Origin: an uncultured Actinomycetes bacterium
GTDB taxonomy: Bacteria; Actinomycetota; Thermoleophilia; UBA2241
Direction of reading: 5' to 3'
Length of the DNA stretch: 64,000 nt
NCBI GenBank assembly: GCA_963725665.1
Contig: CAVRZA010000011.1
Location: forward strand, 160,001 to 224,000
In this document: in pieces, positions 2,928 through 19,223 of the stretch
Layout: every line of letters starts with the position of its first letter
How positions within the stretch are numbered: position 1 is the stretch's first letter
Position numbers and translations under genes: made by a program
The notes under the pieces: generated by a model
Database searches by the model: none
What the model was told of the DNA's origin: nothing
What the model saw: the letters and a program-made list of their open reading frames with translations, nothing else

Positions 2928-5614
2928 GCGCCGTCGGCACGAACGGCAACAACGGGGCGTCGGTCGCCCCCGCCGACACGGCTGCGACGGGCCCGAGCGT
3001 ACACGGCGCCGCCGGTGTTGCCGGCGGCGAGTCGCCGGTGCTCATCCTCTGCGAGTGCGCTGGGACGATGCCCAACATCGACTTCGCCGGCCTCGAGGAC
3101 GCCTTCGCCGAACGCGCCGAGGTGCTGAGCGGCCGTCACTGGTGCAGCCGCGAGGGCCAGGCCCGTCTGCTCGAGCTGATGGAGGCCGGCGATGGTCGCC
3201 AGCTCGTCTTCGCCGGCTGCTCGAAGGACTTCGCCAACCGGCGCTTCCACCGTCTCATGATGCGCGGGCTCGAGCTCGAGGTCGCCGACATCCGCGAGGG
3301 CTGCTCGTGGGCGCACGGAGCCGTGCGCGGCACGGAGCAGCCGCTCGACGAGATGGCCGCTGTGAGCGACAAGGCGGCGCGCATCATCGAGGCCGCCCTG
3401 ACGTACCCCGCGCCGGCGGCCGACCGCCTCGCCCGCGAGCGTCGCCGCGACTCGGTGCTCGTGATCGGCGGCGGCGTCACCGGCACGCAGGCCGCCTGCG
3501 AGCTGGCCCAGATGGGCCACCACGTCGACCTCGTCGAGACGCGGCCCTTCCTCGGCGGCCGCGCCGCTCGCATCGGCACCGTCTTCCCGACCAACGACTG
3601 CGGCCAGTGTCTGCCGACGACCGACGCCCAGGCCGGCGTGCGCAAGTGCTTCCACCGCAACCTCGCCATCGACGACCCCAAGCTGCACATCTGGCGCCGC
3701 GCCTCGGTCGAATCGGTGGACGGAGGGGCCGGCGACTTCGAGGTCGTCGTGCGCCGCCTGCCCAACATCGTCACCGACGCCTGCATCAATTGCGGCGCGT
3801 GTGAGACGGTCTGTCCCGAGATGAGCGCCGACGGTATGAACAAGGCCATCTACACGGAGTTCTACGACGGCCGCGTGGTGCGCACGGTCGACCTCGAGAC
3901 GTGCAGCTTCTGCGGCGCCTGTGTCGAGGCCTGTCCCGTCGAGGCCATCGACTTCGACCAGTCGCCCGAGCGCATGACGCTGCAGGCGGGCGCCGTCCTC
4001 ACAGCCATCGGCTGTGAGCCGGCGCCAGCCGAGCTCGTCACGCACCTAGGCTACGGCCACGAGCCGGTCGTCACGCAGACCGAGCTCGCCGAGCTTCTCG
4101 ACGACTGGGAGGCGCAGTCGGCCGAGGGACGCGCGCCGGCCAAGGAGCTGGTCATGATCCAGTGCGCCGGCTCACGCGACCGCCGTCGCCTGCCCTACTG
4201 CTCGCGCCTCTGCTGCATGATCGCCCTCAAGCACGCCATCCGCCTGCGCATGCTGTTCCCAGAGATGAAGGTGACCATCTGCTACCTCGAGTTGCGCGCC
4301 GCCGGCATCGGCTACGAGAACTGGTACCTCGAGGCGCGGCGTGCCGGGGTCGAGTTCCTGCGCGGCACGCCGCCGGAGGTGCAGTTCGACGAGAACGGGC
4401 GACCGGTGATCGAGGTCGACGACATGTCGGCAGGACGCAAGAGGACCCTGCGCCCCGACCTCGTGGTGCTCTCGAGCGGCATGGTCCCGGCGAACGACAC
4501 GCGGCGCATCGCCGAGGCTCTGCAGATCGAGCGCGACGAGGACGGCTTCATCGAGATCCTCGACCGCAAGAACCGGGCCACGGAGACCACGCGCGAGGGC
4601 GTCTTCGTCGCCGGATCGGCGGCGGGCCCGAAGGCCCTGGTGGAGTGCAACACGGAGGCCTCGGCGGTGGCCAGCGAGATCCACAACTTCCTCGCCAGCG
4701 CCGGGCGCCGCAGCGCGCCCGCCTCCGTCGTCGACGCGGCGATCTGCGTCGGCTGCGACATCTGCTTCGATGCCTGCCCCTTCAACGCCATTTCCCTGGT
4801 GGAGCGGCCGGCCGACGCGCCGCGTCCGGCTGAGGTGAAGGATCACGGCAAGCTGGCCGTCATCGACGAGGAGGCCTGTCACGCTTGCGGCATCTGCGCC
4901 GCCAACTGCCCCGAGATCGCCATCCGCCACAACCTCGCCGACGAGGCGCTCTTCGGCCGCCTGCGGATCATCACTGAGGGCGTCGACGAGCCCATCGTCG
5001 GCTTCTACTGCAAGGAGTGCGCCGGCGCCGCCATCAGCCTGGGCGGCCTGCGCCACGACAGCTACCCGCCCAACGTGCGGCTGATCGAGCTGCCCTGCCT
5101 CGGGCGAGTGAGCGCCCTGCACATCGCCGAGGCCGCGCGCCTCGGTGCCAAAGGCGTGTTCCTCGCCGGCTGCGCCGAGGGGCGCTGCCAGTATCGGACG
5201 GGAGATTCCAGCGCCGTCGAGCAGGCGCGCCTGGCGGCCGAACTGCTCGAGGACGCCGGACAGCGGCTGCCGATCGAGCTCTGGCACCTGTGCGCCGTCG
5301 ACGGCGCCAGCGTCGGCCGTCGCATCCGCCGCTTCTGCGACCAGGCTCTGAACGATGGGGACCCGGCTAACGACGGCCCCGGCAAGCGAACGGAGCGCGG
5401 TGCGCGCGAGCTGGTGACGGTGGTCGCCGGCGAGGCGGCCTGCGAGGGAGGTGAGAGCAGTGCCTGCAGCTCGCTACTAGCGAGGCACATGAGACCGTTC
5501 GCCGGCTGGCGGACGAGTGCCGCCAGTGCTACCAGTGCGGCCAGTGCGTGGGGGCGTGCCCGAGCGGGTTCGAGCTCGAGGAAGGCCCGCGGCTCGTCGT
5601 GCGCCTCATTCTGA
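2924..5614 (+). CDS. hdrA: HdrA-like flavoprotein fused to a C-terminal MvhD domain (QmoB-like architecture); true 3' end probably near 5454
   Basis: GTG at 2924; ILCECAG, IREGCSW, IGGGVTG, FPTNDC, QCAGSRD and YCSRLCC motifs; four ferredoxin motifs; C-terminal GFYCKEC/PCLGRV/AGCAEGRCQY. Confidence 0.85.
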   Translation: MSAVGTNGNNGASVAPADTAATGPSVHGAAGVAGGESPVLILCECAGTMPNIDFAGLEDAFAERAEVLSGRHWCSREGQARLLELMEAGDGRQLVFAGCSKDFANRRFHRLMMRGLELEVADIREGCSWAHGAVRGTEQPLDEMAAVSDKAARIIEAALTYPAPAADRLARERRRDSVLVIGGGVTGTQAACELAQMGHHVDLVETRPFLGGRAARIGTVFPTNDCGQCLPTTDAQAGVRKCFHRNLAIDDPKLHIWRRASVESVDGGAGDFEVVVRRLPNIVTDACINCGACETVCPEMSADGMNKAIYTEFYDGRVVRTVDLETCSFCGACVEACPVEAIDFDQSPERMTLQAGAVLTAIGCEPAPAELVTHLGYGHEPVVTQTELAELLDDWEAQSAEGRAPAKELVMIQCAGSRDRRRLPYCSRLCCMIALKHAIRLRMLFPEMKVTICYLELRAAGIGYENWYLEARRAGVEFLRGTPPEVQFDENGRPVIEVDDMSAGRKRTLRPDLVVLSSGMVPANDTRRIAEALQIERDEDGFIEILDRKNRATETTREGVFVAGSAAGPKALVECNTEASAVASEIHNFLASAGRRSAPASVVDAAICVGCDICFDACPFNAISLVERPADAPRPAEVKDHGKLAVIDEEACHACGICAANCPEIAIRHNLADEALFGRLRIITEGVDEPIVGFYCKECAGAAISLGGLRHDSYPPNVRLIELPCLGRVSALHIAEAARLGAKGVFLAGCAEGRCQYRTGDSSAVEQARLAAELLEDAGQRLPIELWHLCAVDGASVGRRIRRFCDQALNDGDPANDGPGKRTERGARELVTVVAGEAACEGGESSACSSLLARHMRPFAGWRTSAASATSAASAWGRARAGSSSRKARGSSCASF

Positions 5615-15841: not shown

Positions 15842-17035
15842 TCAAGTCCCGATGTCCCCAACCGACAGCACCGCCGCGCCGCGGATGCGGCTCTCCTTGA
15901 GGGCGAGCAGGGCCTCGTTCGCCTCCTCGAGCGGGAACGCCTGCACCTCGGTGCGCACCGGGATCTCGGCTGCGACCCGCAGCAGCTCCAGGGCGTCCTG
16001 CCGCGTGCTGTTGGTCACACTGCGAATGACGCGCTCCTGGTAGATCAGCGGGTACTCGATCGAGGGGATGGGGCTCGAGTGGATGCCGCCGAGGGCGACG
16101 ATGCCGCCCTTGTCGAGCGCCTTCAGGGCAGCGACCACGAGCTCGCCGGCGGGAGCGAAGATGATGGCCGCATCGAGACGGAGGGCGGCATCGTCGCCCG
16201 GCGCCTCGCCCGCGGCGCCGGCCCACACGGCCCCGAGCTCGCGCGCCAGGCGGCGATGCTCCTCTCCCCGCGTGAAGACGAAGACGTCCCAACCGAGGTA
16301 GGTGGCGACCTGCGTGGCGATGTGGGCGGCGGCGCCGAAGCCGTAGAGGCCGAGCCTCCGGCTCGGGCCCGCGCCGGCTTCGGCGCCGCCGCCGCGTGCG
16401 TCGCCTTCCTCGGCCGCCGTCACGGAGGGAGGAGTGACCGCGTCGCCCGGCATGCCGCAGCCGGCCCTGGCGGCGTCCTCGCCGAGCTCCTCTGCATCCT
16501 CCGCCGACATCTCCTGGCTCGGCAGCGTCGGCTCGCCTGTCACGCCAACGAGCCGCAGGCATCGGTAGCCGATGATGCCGGCGCAGAGCAGGGGCGCCAC
16601 GGAGAGGTCGTCCATGGCCTGGTGCAGCGCGTAGCTGAACGCATCCCGGGCTACGACGTACTCGGCGTAGCCGCCGTCGACGTCGTAGCCCGTGAAGAGC
16701 GCGTTCTCGCACAGGTTCTCCTGGCCGCGCCGGCAGTAGCGGCAGGTCTCGTCGGCCCGCCACAGCCAGGGCACGCCGACGCGCTGCCCGACGCGGCGGG
16801 CATCGACCCCCTCGCCGACCTCGACGACCTCGCCCACGATCTGGTGACCAGGCACGACGGGCGACTTGTGCGGCGGCAGCTCTCCCTCGACGGTGTGCAA
16901 GTCGGTGTGGCAGATGCCGCAGGCGCGCACGGCGATAAGCAGCTCACCGCGCCCCGGCCTGGGCTTCGGCAGCTCGACCAGCTCGAGCGGCCGGTCCTCG
17001 ACCGCCCGCGGTGTGCGCAGCAACACCGCCCTCAC
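15842..17035 (-). CDS. Zinc-dependent alcohol dehydrogenase family protein with a ~55-aa acidic insertion
   Basis: CGICHTDLH, PGHQIVG, CRYC..GQENLC, APLLCAGIIGYR and GLYGFGAAAH motifs. Confidence 0.9.
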   Translation of the reverse strand: MRAVLLRTPRAVEDRPLELVELPKPRPGRGELLIAVRACGICHTDLHTVEGELPPHKSPVVPGHQIVGEVVEVGEGVDARRVGQRVGVPWLWRADETCRYCRRGQENLCENALFTGYDVDGGYAEYVVARDAFSYALHQAMDDLSVAPLLCAGIIGYRCLRLVGVTGEPTLPSQEMSAEDAEELGEDAARAGCGMPGDAVTPPSVTAAEEGDARGGGAEAGAGPSRRLGLYGFGAAAHIATQVATYLGWDVFVFTRGEEHRRLARELGAVWAGAAGEAPGDDAALRLDAAIIFAPAGELVVAALKALDKGGIVALGGIHSSPIPSIEYPLIYQERVIRSVTNSTRQDALELLRVAAEIPVRTEVQAFPLEEANEALLALKESRIRGAAVLSVGDIGT

Positions 17036-17192
17036 GGTCGCCTCCTCCGGCAGGTTCGTCCGCCAACGGTGGCAGGCCTTCTCTTGGCGTCTCGCATGAC
17101 CATAATCGCCATTCTGTCACTTCCCACGACGGCTTCCTCCGTCGATGGCCGTAGGCCGTACTCGCCCCACTTCGCACGCTGTTCATCAACAC

Positions 17193-17220
17193 TTGAAAGC
17201 CGCGCCATGCGGCCTACACT
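17193..17220 (+). promoter_or_regulatory. Near-consensus sigma70-type promoter TTGAAA-N16-TACACT
   Basis: TTGAAA at 17193-17198 and TACACT at 17215-17220. Confidence 0.6.
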
Positions 17221-17225
17221 GGAGC

Positions 17226-17306
17226 AACTGTTGGTCCTTGACGGGACCCCCAGAGACGAAGGGCGCTCACCCCGTGGGCCCAACGTGGTGAGCGCCCTCT
17301 TCTTGT
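17226..17306 (+). ncRNA. Candidate ~80-nt small RNA or leader (two hairpins, the second terminator-like)
   Basis: GGTCCT-TGAC-GGGACC hairpin; GGGCGCTCACC...GGTGAGCGCCC stem followed by TCTTCTTGT; lies directly behind the promoter. Confidence 0.35.
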
Positions 17307-17354
17307 CCTCCAATCTCTCCCACAGGACCCAGAGGAGGAATCTCTATGACGATG

Positions 17355-18527
17355 TCAAGCCGCCGCGGCGGACCTGAACATCGTCTCGTCGCGAAGCATC
17401 GCCCAGATGACGTTCACCCGCCGCCGGGCAAGCGCGATCACGGCTTGGTGATGGCGCTTGCCCTCGGCCCGCTTGCGGTCGTAGAAGGCGCGCGAGGGCG
17501 GGCTGCGCAGACTGGCGAAGGCGGATTGGTAGAAGACCCGCTTAAGGACCTTGTTGCCCCCCTGCATACGGCGCACGTTGCCGCTTCGTTTGCCCGAGTC
17601 GCGGGCCACCGGGATGAGGCCGGCGTAGGCGGCCAGGTGGTCGGCGGAGGCGAAGCTGCTCAGCTCGCCCACCGCCACCAGGAACTCAGCGCCCAGGCGG
17701 GGGCCCATGCCCGGCAGGCTCACCAGGATCTCCGCCTGGGGGTGGGAGAAAAAACGCCGCTCGAGCTCCTGGTCGAGCCGCGCCAGGCGCTCCTTTGTGG
17801 CCAGCACCTCGCTCGCCAGGTCGGCGACGATCGCGGCGCTCACCTCCTCGGCGGGCAGAGAAACGCTCTGGGCGCCCGCCGCCTTAAGGGCGCTCTCGGC
17901 CAGCTTGGCCGCTCCCCGGCAGCCGCGGGCGCGCAGGTAGGCCTCCAGGCGGCGGGCGCCGGCGCGGCGTACCTCGACCGGCGTGCGGTAGCGCTGCACG
18001 AGGAGCAGGGCGCCCTTGGTGGTGAGGTCCAGGGCGCGCTCCAGGCCGGGGAAGACGCCCACCAGCGCCGCGCGCAGGCGGGTGACGGCCCGTGTCTGGT
18101 CTTGAACCAGGTCGCGCCGCCGCGAGGTCAGCAGGGCCAGCTCGGCCAGCACCGCCTCGCTGGGGCGCAGCTCGGAAAGGTCACGGCGCGTGCGTGCCTG
18201 TTCGGCGATGATGCGCGCATCGCGGGCGTCGGTCTTGGCCTCTCCCCGGTAGGCGTCGCGGGAGCGGTTCACGGCCACGCCCGGCAGGTAGAGCACGCGC
18301 TCCTCGCCGCTCCACAGCACGGCCAGGGCGAGGGCGGCGACGCCGCCGGGGATGTCGAGAGCCCAGGTCGTCTGGCCGGCCTGAGCTCTGGCCTCGGCGA
18401 TCAGCCGCCGCAGCTCGTCCTCGTCGTTCTCCACCCGGCGAGAGAAGACGAGGCGTCCCTCCTCATCGATCGCCGCCGCCCAGTGGAAGTCCTTGCCCGC
18501 GTCGATGCCCACCCACAGCCCAGCCAT
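17355..18527 (-). CDS. IS110 family transposase/recombinase
   Basis: GIDAGK, KTDARDA, SLPGMG, AYAGLIP..RDSG, GGNKVLK and ALARR motifs; AGGAGG RBS before the ATG at 18527. Confidence 0.95.
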   Translation of the reverse strand: MAGLWVGIDAGKDFHWAAAIDEEGRLVFSRRVENDEDELRRLIAEARAQAGQTTWALDIPGGVAALALAVLWSGEERVLYLPGVAVNRSRDAYRGEAKTDARDARIIAEQARTRRDLSELRPSEAVLAELALLTSRRRDLVQDQTRAVTRLRAALVGVFPGLERALDLTTKGALLLVQRYRTPVEVRRAGARRLEAYLRARGCRGAAKLAESALKAAGAQSVSLPAEEVSAAIVADLASEVLATKERLARLDQELERRFFSHPQAEILVSLPGMGPRLGAEFLVAVGELSSFASADHLAAYAGLIPVARDSGKRSGNVRRMQGGNKVLKRVFYQSAFASLRSPPSRAFYDRKRAEGKRHHQAVIALARRRVNVIWAMLRDETMFRSAAAA

Positions 18528-18539
18528 GGCCACCTCCTC

Positions 18540-18712
18540 GCTTCCGCCGACCCCTTGCCCGTGGAGCACCCCGCCGGCACCTCCCTACACAGCGATCGCT
18601 CGCCGATCTCTATCAGCGGTCAGGGCGTCCAAAGGGGCCGAGGGGCCATTCCTCCCGAGCCATGCGAGCGGCAGAGACATGACAGCCATCCTCGACCCTT
18701 CTGGGCGTCCCG
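18540..18712 (-). ncRNA. Putative IS110 bridge RNA
   Basis: ~190-nt 5' non-coding end with a stem 18690-18704/18629-18643. Internal 8-mers match the element end (18606-18613 = 17340-17347) and the flank (18648-18655 complementary to 17334-17341). Confidence 0.65.
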
Positions 18713-18776
18713 GACGCTACCGCAAAGAGGGCTCACAGCAAAGAATCCGTACGCCACAGGAGAAAGGTAGGGAGAC

Positions 18777-19223
18777 ATGAACAGTGAGCAACCGCCAGAG
18801 GGACCGCAATGGCGCATTCTGGGCGCCGAGAGAGGCGCTGACTTGGCCGAACACCTGGCCCACGAGCAGGAGGCGGTGCTCATGCTCGGCGACGACGTCT
18901 TCGTGTTTCACCGGCTAGGCGTCGGCACTACGCCGGAGCTTCCCTGGAAAGACGAGACCGAGGAACTCACGCTGCACAGAATGGGGTCTTTTGCCCCACT
19001 GGAGGAGCACGAGCGCGCATACATAGCGCAGCAGAACAGCGAGGCAGAGTACAAGCAGGCAGCCGAGAAGGCGCTTTCCTTCCAACTGATGGGGGGGCAA
19101 CAGGTCATCCGGCTGTACCGACACACACACGCGCACGCGTTCGCCGAGGAGATCCACAAAGAGGGTCTTCGACTGACCATTGTCGGCCTGCTCGATGACG
19201 TGCGAGCGGCGTCAATAGCCTAG
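18777..19223 (+). CDS. Hypothetical protein, lower GC than its neighbours
   Basis: 148-aa ORF with a GGGAG RBS, globular-looking composition and more A/T-ending codons than neighbouring genes. Confidence 0.65.
   Translation: MNSEQPPEGPQWRILGAERGADLAEHLAHEQEAVLMLGDDVFVFHRLGVGTTPELPWKDETEELTLHRMGSFAPLEEHERAYIAQQNSEAEYKQAAEKALSFQLMGGQQVIRLYRHTHAHAFAEEIHKEGLRLTIVGLLDDVRAASIA

Follow-up and report, generated by a model that had tools for sequence, protein, structure and literature searches.

The design rules of bridge-RNA-guided insertion have been described for IS621 (Durrant et al. 2024, PMC11208160; Hiraizumi et al. 2024, PMC11208158) and were used here to read the guides. According to both papers, IS621 has a recombinase with a DEDD RuvC-like domain and a Tnp domain with a catalytic serine, the catalytic positions being D11, E60, D102, D105 and S241 (PMC11208158), a long left end carrying a -10 and a very short right end carrying a -35 promoter element, and a left-end RNA composed of a 5' stem-loop and two stem-loops with internal loops. 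In this RNA, the left target guide (LTG) is identical to the left target half (LT) plus the core dinucleotide, the right target guide (RTG) is complementary to the core plus the right target half (RT), and 2-nt handshakes located 3' of the RTG and of the right donor guide (RDG) pair with non-cognate DNA; the core is repeated at both ends of the element. The same layout, with predicted promoter elements and a predicted RNA, recurs in an IS110-family element on the minus strand of a 64,000-nt stretch of DNA (hereafter the window; positions 160,001 to 224,000 of contig CAVRZA010000011.1, assembly GCA_963725665.1) from an uncultured Actinomycetes bacterium. The window element differs from IS621, as far as the latter is described there, in its core (TC instead of CT), in an RTG that reads 5 bases past the core (2 in wild-type IS621) and in its target, which is a translation-initiation region and not a REP-type repeat; moreover, its left donor guide (LDG) comprises 7 bases plus core with one unpaired donor T between them, and its protein is distant, with only the Tnp domain aligning significantly by sequence. 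It is very likely an intact, recently active IS110-group insertion sequence that works like IS621; as such it belongs to a known kind, and its mechanism is not new.

The second system used for comparison is IS900, for which Doran et al. 1997 is reportedly the work cited. As described in PMC8141618, IS900 of Mycobacterium avium subsp. paratuberculosis inserts between ribosome-binding site (RBS) and start codon at the motif CATGNNNNNNTCTCCTT, and carries hed, an open reading frame (ORF) that runs opposite the transposase over the whole length of the element and relies on signals of the host. With this description the window element shares membership in the IS110 family, a target composed of CATG, a spacer and a TCTCCTT-like reverse complement of the Shine-Dalgarno (SD) sequence, placement between RBS and start codon, and an element-spanning ORF on the opposite strand; it differs in the spacing (CATG-N2-TC-CTCC here, CATG-N6-TCTCCTT in IS900) and in that the right end supplies an ATG to its antisense ORF. 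The two are likened by these described features, not by transposase sequence.

Of the named relatives found, IS2112 of Rhodococcus (annotated in NZ_CP091856.1) is the nearest, with 54% protein identity. It has the same TC core and the same complementarities between RDG and right donor (RD) and between RTG and RT, and one of its copies lies antisense to a gene at a distance of 9 nt from the start codon. Its donor ends (ATTGAAAC / CGTAAG) are different, and its LDG diverges 3' of a 7-nt match. A literature search in which supplementary tables lay outside the search found no paper linking bridge RNAs with IS900-type targeting, and ribosome-binding-site targets were not mentioned in the searchable text of PMC11208160 and of one 2026 preprint.

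Ends, core and recombinase of the element

The ends, the coding sequence and the sites of recombination were assigned as follows:

17338..18773, minus: whole IS110-family element with both TC copies, defined by an identical second copy and the conserved ends of about 70 relatives
17355..18527, minus: transposase/bridge recombinase coding sequence (390 aa; PF01548, PF02371; ATG at 18527)
18772..18773, minus: left TC core copy
17338..17339, minus: right TC core copy
18774..18780, minus: left target half TCATGTC, identical to the LTG and containing the reverse complement of the host ATG
17332..17337, minus: right target half CTCCTC; on the plus strand 17332-17339 reads GAGGAGGA, the host SD
17340..17347, minus: left donor (LD) ATAGAGAT, at the right end of the element

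A second copy (copy B) is present on contig 4 of the same genome (G000), with 100% identity from 18774 to 17332 (1443 bp) and unrelated flanks. As identical copies with differing flanks define the ends, the whole element corresponds to 18773-17338 on the minus strand (about 1.43 kb, including one TC core copy at each end), with a body of 1432 bp (18771-17340), a non-coding left end of 244 nt (18771-18528) and a right end of 15 nt past the stop codon (17354-17340). Public sequencing runs contain the element only in parts, as contigs, and in one of them (X1) these break at 17332 and 18774, which are the limits of identity between the two copies. The original prediction, made from the letters of the window, had set the left end at 18732, about 40 nt short; because the identity with copy B reaches 18774, and because relatives keep the sequence (TC)CCTACCT at 18773-18765, this boundary had to be moved outward, and the heptamer GCCCTCT, formerly taken for the left flank, comes to lie inside the element.

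When 88 genomes of the same family or order were searched at the DNA and protein level, no further copy or close relative came to light, and a scan of the genome contigs with the single protein sequence yielded only 4 loci of about 50% identity. Metagenomes were richer in relatives of the protein, with 5319 sequences at E <= 1e-40 among 8000 scored (best identity 86%), and a scan for element loci returned 80 loci of 52-81% identity. About 70 relatives with a protein identity of 61-81% were used to compare ends and junctions. Their right ends are conserved exactly through ...TTGACA-N9-CATAGAGAT/TC and diverge afterwards, the dinucleotide after the boundary being TC in 73/73 rows in which the right-end motif was found. 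The left ends open with TC/CC(C/T)TA(C/T)C; at this junction TC was found in 53 of 61 relatives, CC in 6, TT in 1 and AC in 1.

The sequence first reported across the right junction, TTGACATCGTCATAGAGATTCCTCC, was recovered at 17358-17334 (minus), and the T/TT core proposed with it gave way to TC: this dinucleotide stands at both junctions and is read by all four guides, as UC in LTG and LDG and as GA in RTG and RDG. Alternative cores, namely CT, CC, and TC at the second or third TCC repeat, were rejected together with T/TT, since the right ends of the relatives are exact up to ...GATTC, since UC or GA is carried by all four guides, and since the 17-nt promoter spacer described below is obtained only in the TC register. 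An isolated stretch of about 95 nt with about 80% identity to the outermost left end was observed in another genus of the same family (genome G085, locus L006, about 1500-1600, minus), where it directly adjoins the GTG of a Rossmann-type gene with no transposase present; it looks like a solo left-end remnant kept as a gene leader.

The transposase frame is open from 17355 to 18569 (minus), and an upstream GTG at 18569 is open as well, the likely start being the ATG at 18527, which is preceded by GAGGAGG. Pfam searches matched PF01548 (DEDD_Tnp_IS110; 1.7e-46, residues 20-174 of a 404-aa reading) and PF02371 (Transposase_20; 4.3e-20). A profile of 34 relatives was compared with the IS621 protein in the PDB (chain 8wt6) and aligned with an E value of 1.3e-16 (6e-12 with the single sequence), D11/E60/D102/D105/S241 of IS621 corresponding to D9/D58/D100/D103/S311, so that the second DEDD residue is Asp, not Glu. 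The N-terminal part of this alignment is weak when taken alone (7.6 bits); within the family, each of the five positions is invariant or conserved to at least 90%, and S311 is invariant in the 34 sequences. That the element is an intact member of the IS110 group had been proposed before, and the domains and aligned catalytic positions bear this out. The TGA stop codon of the transposase (17355-17358) is located inside the -35 hexamer TTGACA of the presumed junction promoter.

Predicted bridge RNA and guide matches

The following features were assigned to the promoter halves, the RNA and its guides:

17353..17358, minus: -35 hexamer TTGACA in the right end, conserved in the right ends of the relatives
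18764..18769, minus: -10-like hexamer TACCTT (T1, A2 and T6 invariant or at least 90% conserved in 56 sequences)
18563..18757, minus: predicted bridge RNA with approximate ends (RNAalifold consensus; 5' end placed according to the -10 element)
18674..18682, minus: LTG UCAUGUC+UC, on the 5' side of the target-binding loop
18648..18656, minus: RTG GGGAG+GA (18656-18650) followed by the handshake AU (18649-48), on the 3' side of the target-binding loop
18605..18613, minus: LDG AUAGAGA+UC, on the 5' side of the donor-binding loop and identical to ATAGAGA of the right end
18580..18588, minus: RDG GUAGG+GA (18588-18582) followed by the handshake GG (18581-80), on the 3' side of the donor-binding loop

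Joining the two ends arithmetically gives TTGACA-N17-TACCTT as predicted promoter at the circle junction. The -35 element had been recognized originally, together with TAGCGT as -10; the latter would be situated about 67 nt from the -35 in the circle, and TACCTT takes its place.

A consensus fold of 56 sequences (RNAalifold) contains a 5' stem-loop, a target-binding loop and a donor-binding loop, with 47 pairs of which 96.8% of the cells are paired, compared to 38-51% with the partner slid. Covariation, which the original prediction had named as a check, was found in 18/47 pairs as compensatory change, against 7.6 +/- 1.8 in shuffles (reached in 0/500). The IS621-type bridge RNA postulated in the 5' non-coding end was recovered as a covarying fold with guides. 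A long stem is indeed present where 15 bp had been described (18704-18690 / 18643-29), although counting by hand gave 12 Watson-Crick and 2 G-U pairs with 1 mismatch; in the family consensus the stem is formed by 18700-18685 / 18646-18633, and the 5' stem-loop of the window copy aligns poorly to the consensus.

Three of the guides had been seen in part before. The octamer AUAGAGAU (18613-18606, minus), described as left-donor-guide-like, belongs to the LDG, and GGAGGAAU (18655-18648, minus), described as right-target-guide-like, comprises RTG and handshake. AUGUCUCU (18680-18673) was rightly picked out as a guide segment, being part of the LTG; the match assigned to it was not the right one, as instead of agreeing partly with GCCCTCT the LTG matches the true flank, LT plus core, at 9/9 positions (7/9 in copy B). 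Once the ends are corrected, the agreement between guides and junctions is far closer than originally described. The RTG is complementary to TC+CTCC(T) of the right flank, and the partner of its handshake AU is formed by the last two bases of LD in the donor, not by the target; correspondingly, the RDG is complementary to TC+CCTAC at the left end, and its handshake GG is able to pair with the last target bases. As a control for chance, 5000 dinucleotide shuffles of the 244-nt left end were searched for matches of equal length. The 9-nt match of the LTG was equalled 3 times, the 8-nt match of the LDG 41 times and the 7-nt match of the RDG 300 times; the sum of all four guide matches was equalled in 0/5000 shuffles.

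In the relatives, each guide was compared with the flank of its own element. The RTG matched the right flank at 4.73/6 positions (3.22 when permuted) and the LTG matched the left flank plus core at 7.43/9 (5.26 when permuted), neither being reached in 10000 permutations over 56 distinct sites (0/10000 each). When the elements were grouped into 14 RTG classes, the consensus flank agreed with what the guide predicts at 4-6 of 6 positions. In 57/61 relatives RDG and element end covary, with 4 partial exceptions, GUAGGGAG being paired with the end CCTACC in 41 relatives and AUAAGGAG with CTTATC in 16. LDG and LD are nearly invariant (66/68 relatives) and for this reason give no covariation signal within the clade, while a distant relative, locus L035, has a different LD and a different core with the same extra T in the donor, and its LDG covaries in the same register. 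In this locus, a contig of an Actinomycetota metagenome-assembled genome, the left core CC is read by LTG and RDG and the right core GC by LDG and RTG; judged by these sequences, the first core base of the 3'-side guides seems to be matched to the incoming and not to the cognate strand, in the manner of an extended handshake. In another locus, L082, the RTG predicts a right flank CTTTC and the element adjoins TTCCACGAG; this may be an off-target or half-matched insertion.

That the protein chiefly picks the target by recognizing SD-like DNA, with the RNA matches being secondary, is very improbable. The core and the first RT bases (TC-CT/TT) are common to many relatives, and few bases are paired by the window RTG, as this explanation would have it; elements with the same scaffold and with 62-68% identical proteins have quite different targets, however, and these follow the LTG and RTG of each element over all the RTG classes, in agreement with RNA guiding as published for IS621 in the papers cited above. 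From the natural diversity of guides on a constant scaffold we infer that the window element would be reprogrammable, as had been suggested for it.

The only Rfam hit, to the plant microRNA family MIR950 (E 0.099), is below threshold and certainly spurious, with 24.5 bits against a gathering score of 95 and a position outside the element. Its source is a strong GC-rich hairpin at 17259-17300, just upstream of the insertion site, which may act as terminator or have a regulatory role in the region of the divergent alcohol-dehydrogenase gene.

Insertion between Shine-Dalgarno sequence and start codon

On the gene strand the target site in the window reads GAGGAG-GA-GACATG, that is, an SD, 4-5 bases, and the ATG of the ORF at 18777:

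18777..19223, plus: host gene (148 aa, no Pfam family), whose start region is the target

That the target contains an SD had been noted originally, as a Shine-Dalgarno-like GGAGG, and is borne out. The predicted bias towards 5' UTRs was right and understated, as both genomic copies (2/2) are located exactly between SD and start codon with the transposase antisense to the target gene. Copy B follows a TetR-family gene and directly precedes a histone-deacetylase-family gene, whose GTG it adjoins; with the site rebuilt, stop and start codons would overlap. The two genes it separates are found at 655-1518 and 2946-3959 of locus L002; the insertion alters the last residues of the TetR ORF, whose new TGA overlaps the ATG of the antisense ORF of the element. 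The nearest relatives (L041, L042 and L045) carry CAT in the LTG and CTCC in the right flank and show the same placement between RBS and start codon. A large class of relatives with the right flank CTTTC is located in GAAAGGAG. The elements of the largest class (for example L043, L053, L088 and L092) are all found in the same conserved stretch of host sequence, about 45 nt long (...AACTTCCGAGAAC.. / ..TTCYA.GCA...GGTGAATAAG), which is presumably a repeated host element.

By analogy to IS621, the following sequence of events may be envisaged. In the excised circle, the -35 of the right end and the -10 of the left end would unite into a promoter, from which a bridge RNA of about 200 nt would be transcribed from the left end. 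With LTG and RTG in its target-binding loop and LDG and RDG in its donor-binding loop, this RNA would allow the DEDD/Ser recombinase to join the circle junction (ATAGAGAT-TC-CCTAC) to the genomic sequence TCATGTC-TC-CTCC, with strand exchange at the TC core. As the target is the reverse complement of SD, spacer and ATG, the element lands between RBS and start codon with its transposase antisense.

Several observations weigh against this reading, both as regards the guides and as regards mobility. The donor DNA reads ATAGAGA-T-TC and has one extra T before the core relative to the LDG. Beyond the core, the window RTG forms only 4 Watson-Crick pairs and one G-T pair, and its 7-nt match was equalled in 697/5000 shuffles and is not significant alone; the left end also contains the SD of the transposase itself, which makes such matches frequent in shuffles, and support for the RTG consequently rests on the covariation in the relatives. 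Between the LTG and the left flank of copy B there are 2 mismatches. Because the relatives are kin, the permutation and Fisher figures overstate their independence. Folded as a single sequence, the left end was no better than its shuffles (z -0.89), and an Rfam 15 scan of 17000-19100 returned no RNA family. In the genome, the 13-nt target has no perfect free site, 6 free sites with one mismatch and 94 within two mismatches (21 for a reversed control), yet there are only 2 copies of the element. No exact empty site was found in the 88 related genomes, the genus holding this genome only; orthologues of the copy-B target gene exist in 75/88 of them, with upstream regions that are too diverged to serve as empty site and have the usual layout of SD followed by start. 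No circle junction, joint or empty site was detected for 17000-19100 in the Logan contigs of 4 public runs, which cannot reveal rare forms, and none of the 15 public runs listed holds RNA.

These counts of copies, the missing joints, circles and empty sites, and the lack of a close relative among the 88 genomes would be expected if the element were a bridge-RNA IS110 that is no longer mobile, its copies having arisen by duplication or old transposition and its guide matches being a frozen record. We consider this unlikely: the two copies are fully identical and have unrelated flanks, each at an SD/start site, the ORF is intact with conserved catalytic residues, the promoter hexamers and all guide loops are intact, and the contigs searched are of a kind unable to show rare forms. 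Checking other copies for their ends and flanks, as suggested at the outset, gave identical ends in copy B and flanks that track the guides in the relatives, with only the left boundary changed. Read from its sequence and that of its relatives, the element is genuine and intact and probably recently active, with an IS621-type bridge RNA.

The antisense reading frame

Opposite the transposase, the element contains a second long frame:

17346..18770, plus: hed-like antisense ORF (474 aa) that extends over the whole element, codon-aligned opposite the transposase

Its ATG lies within the right end, 7 nt past the captured host SD, where the minus strand reads CAT (17348-17346), and its TAG lies in the terminus of the left end, within AGGGAG, 6 nt before the host ATG. 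Of the 63 relatives for which both ends are available, 15 have an antisense frame that is open from end to end and 4 more have one that is nearly open. The open or nearly open frames all belong to classes that target ribosome sites, and the frames of other classes contain 4-15 stops; class membership was decided from the right flank alone and took no account of the codons counted. Antisense stops arise from three sense codons, TCA, CTA and TTA. The ratio of TCA+CTA to TCT+CTT was 4:138 in 22 targeting elements and 298:486 in 48 others, and that of TTA to TTG was 0:101 and 33:272, respectively. As a control, the other A-ending and T-ending codons were counted, with similar ratios in both groups (275:518 in targeting elements, 1130:1677 in others). 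In a subset matched for GC content at third positions, TCA+CTA and TCT+CTT still stood at 2:47 in targeting elements as against 79:138 in others. A purge so specific to codons creating antisense stops suggests that the frame is kept open by selection, as for a hed-like gene; at the level of codon usage, the counts argue for such maintenance.

It is possible, though we lean the other way, that the antisense ORF is no gene and is open through the high GC content opposite the transposase, the targeting of ribosome-binding sites being unrelated to it. A frame that is codon-aligned antisense to a gene of 71% GC is often open by chance, the ORF matches no Pfam family, relatives with a GAGAA target transpose without an open frame, and start and stop are situated within sequences that are conserved anyway as donor guide sites. 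High GC content would, however, not single out the stop-creating codons from other A-ending ones, nor is the effect lost on matching for GC; the frame is open also across the non-coding left end of about 245 nt, and the in-frame stop is retained in both RD variants, as TAG or as TAA.

After insertion, the captured host SD sits before the right-end ATG that opens the element-long ORF, which ends 6 nt before the host ATG and beside the SD-like AGGGAG recreated by the element end; the host gene would probably still be translated through coupling. The ORF, or the transit of ribosomes alone, could also regulate the expression of transposase or bridge RNA from the opposite strand.

We regard the joint interpretation, taken as a whole, as evenly poised between right and wrong. 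It holds that the window element represents a clade of IS110 elements of actinobacterial type with a target-binding loop programmed for SD plus start codon; that this explains in molecular terms why, as observed in the 1990s, IS900-like elements hit signals of translation initiation; that the element is built so that its insertion hardly disturbs translation; and that the host SD drives an antisense ORF kept by selection, which ends near the host start beside an SD-like sequence supplied by the element.

The element adds a natural bridge recombinase with a core other than CT, namely TC, a right target guide of greater length and a left donor guide with an offset; each of the three is useful for gauging the flexibility of the IS621 design rules. 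It connects guiding by bridge RNA with the old and unexplained IS900-type insertion between RBS and start codon, and the codon evidence for a selected antisense ORF makes the long-doubted hed-type gene directly testable.

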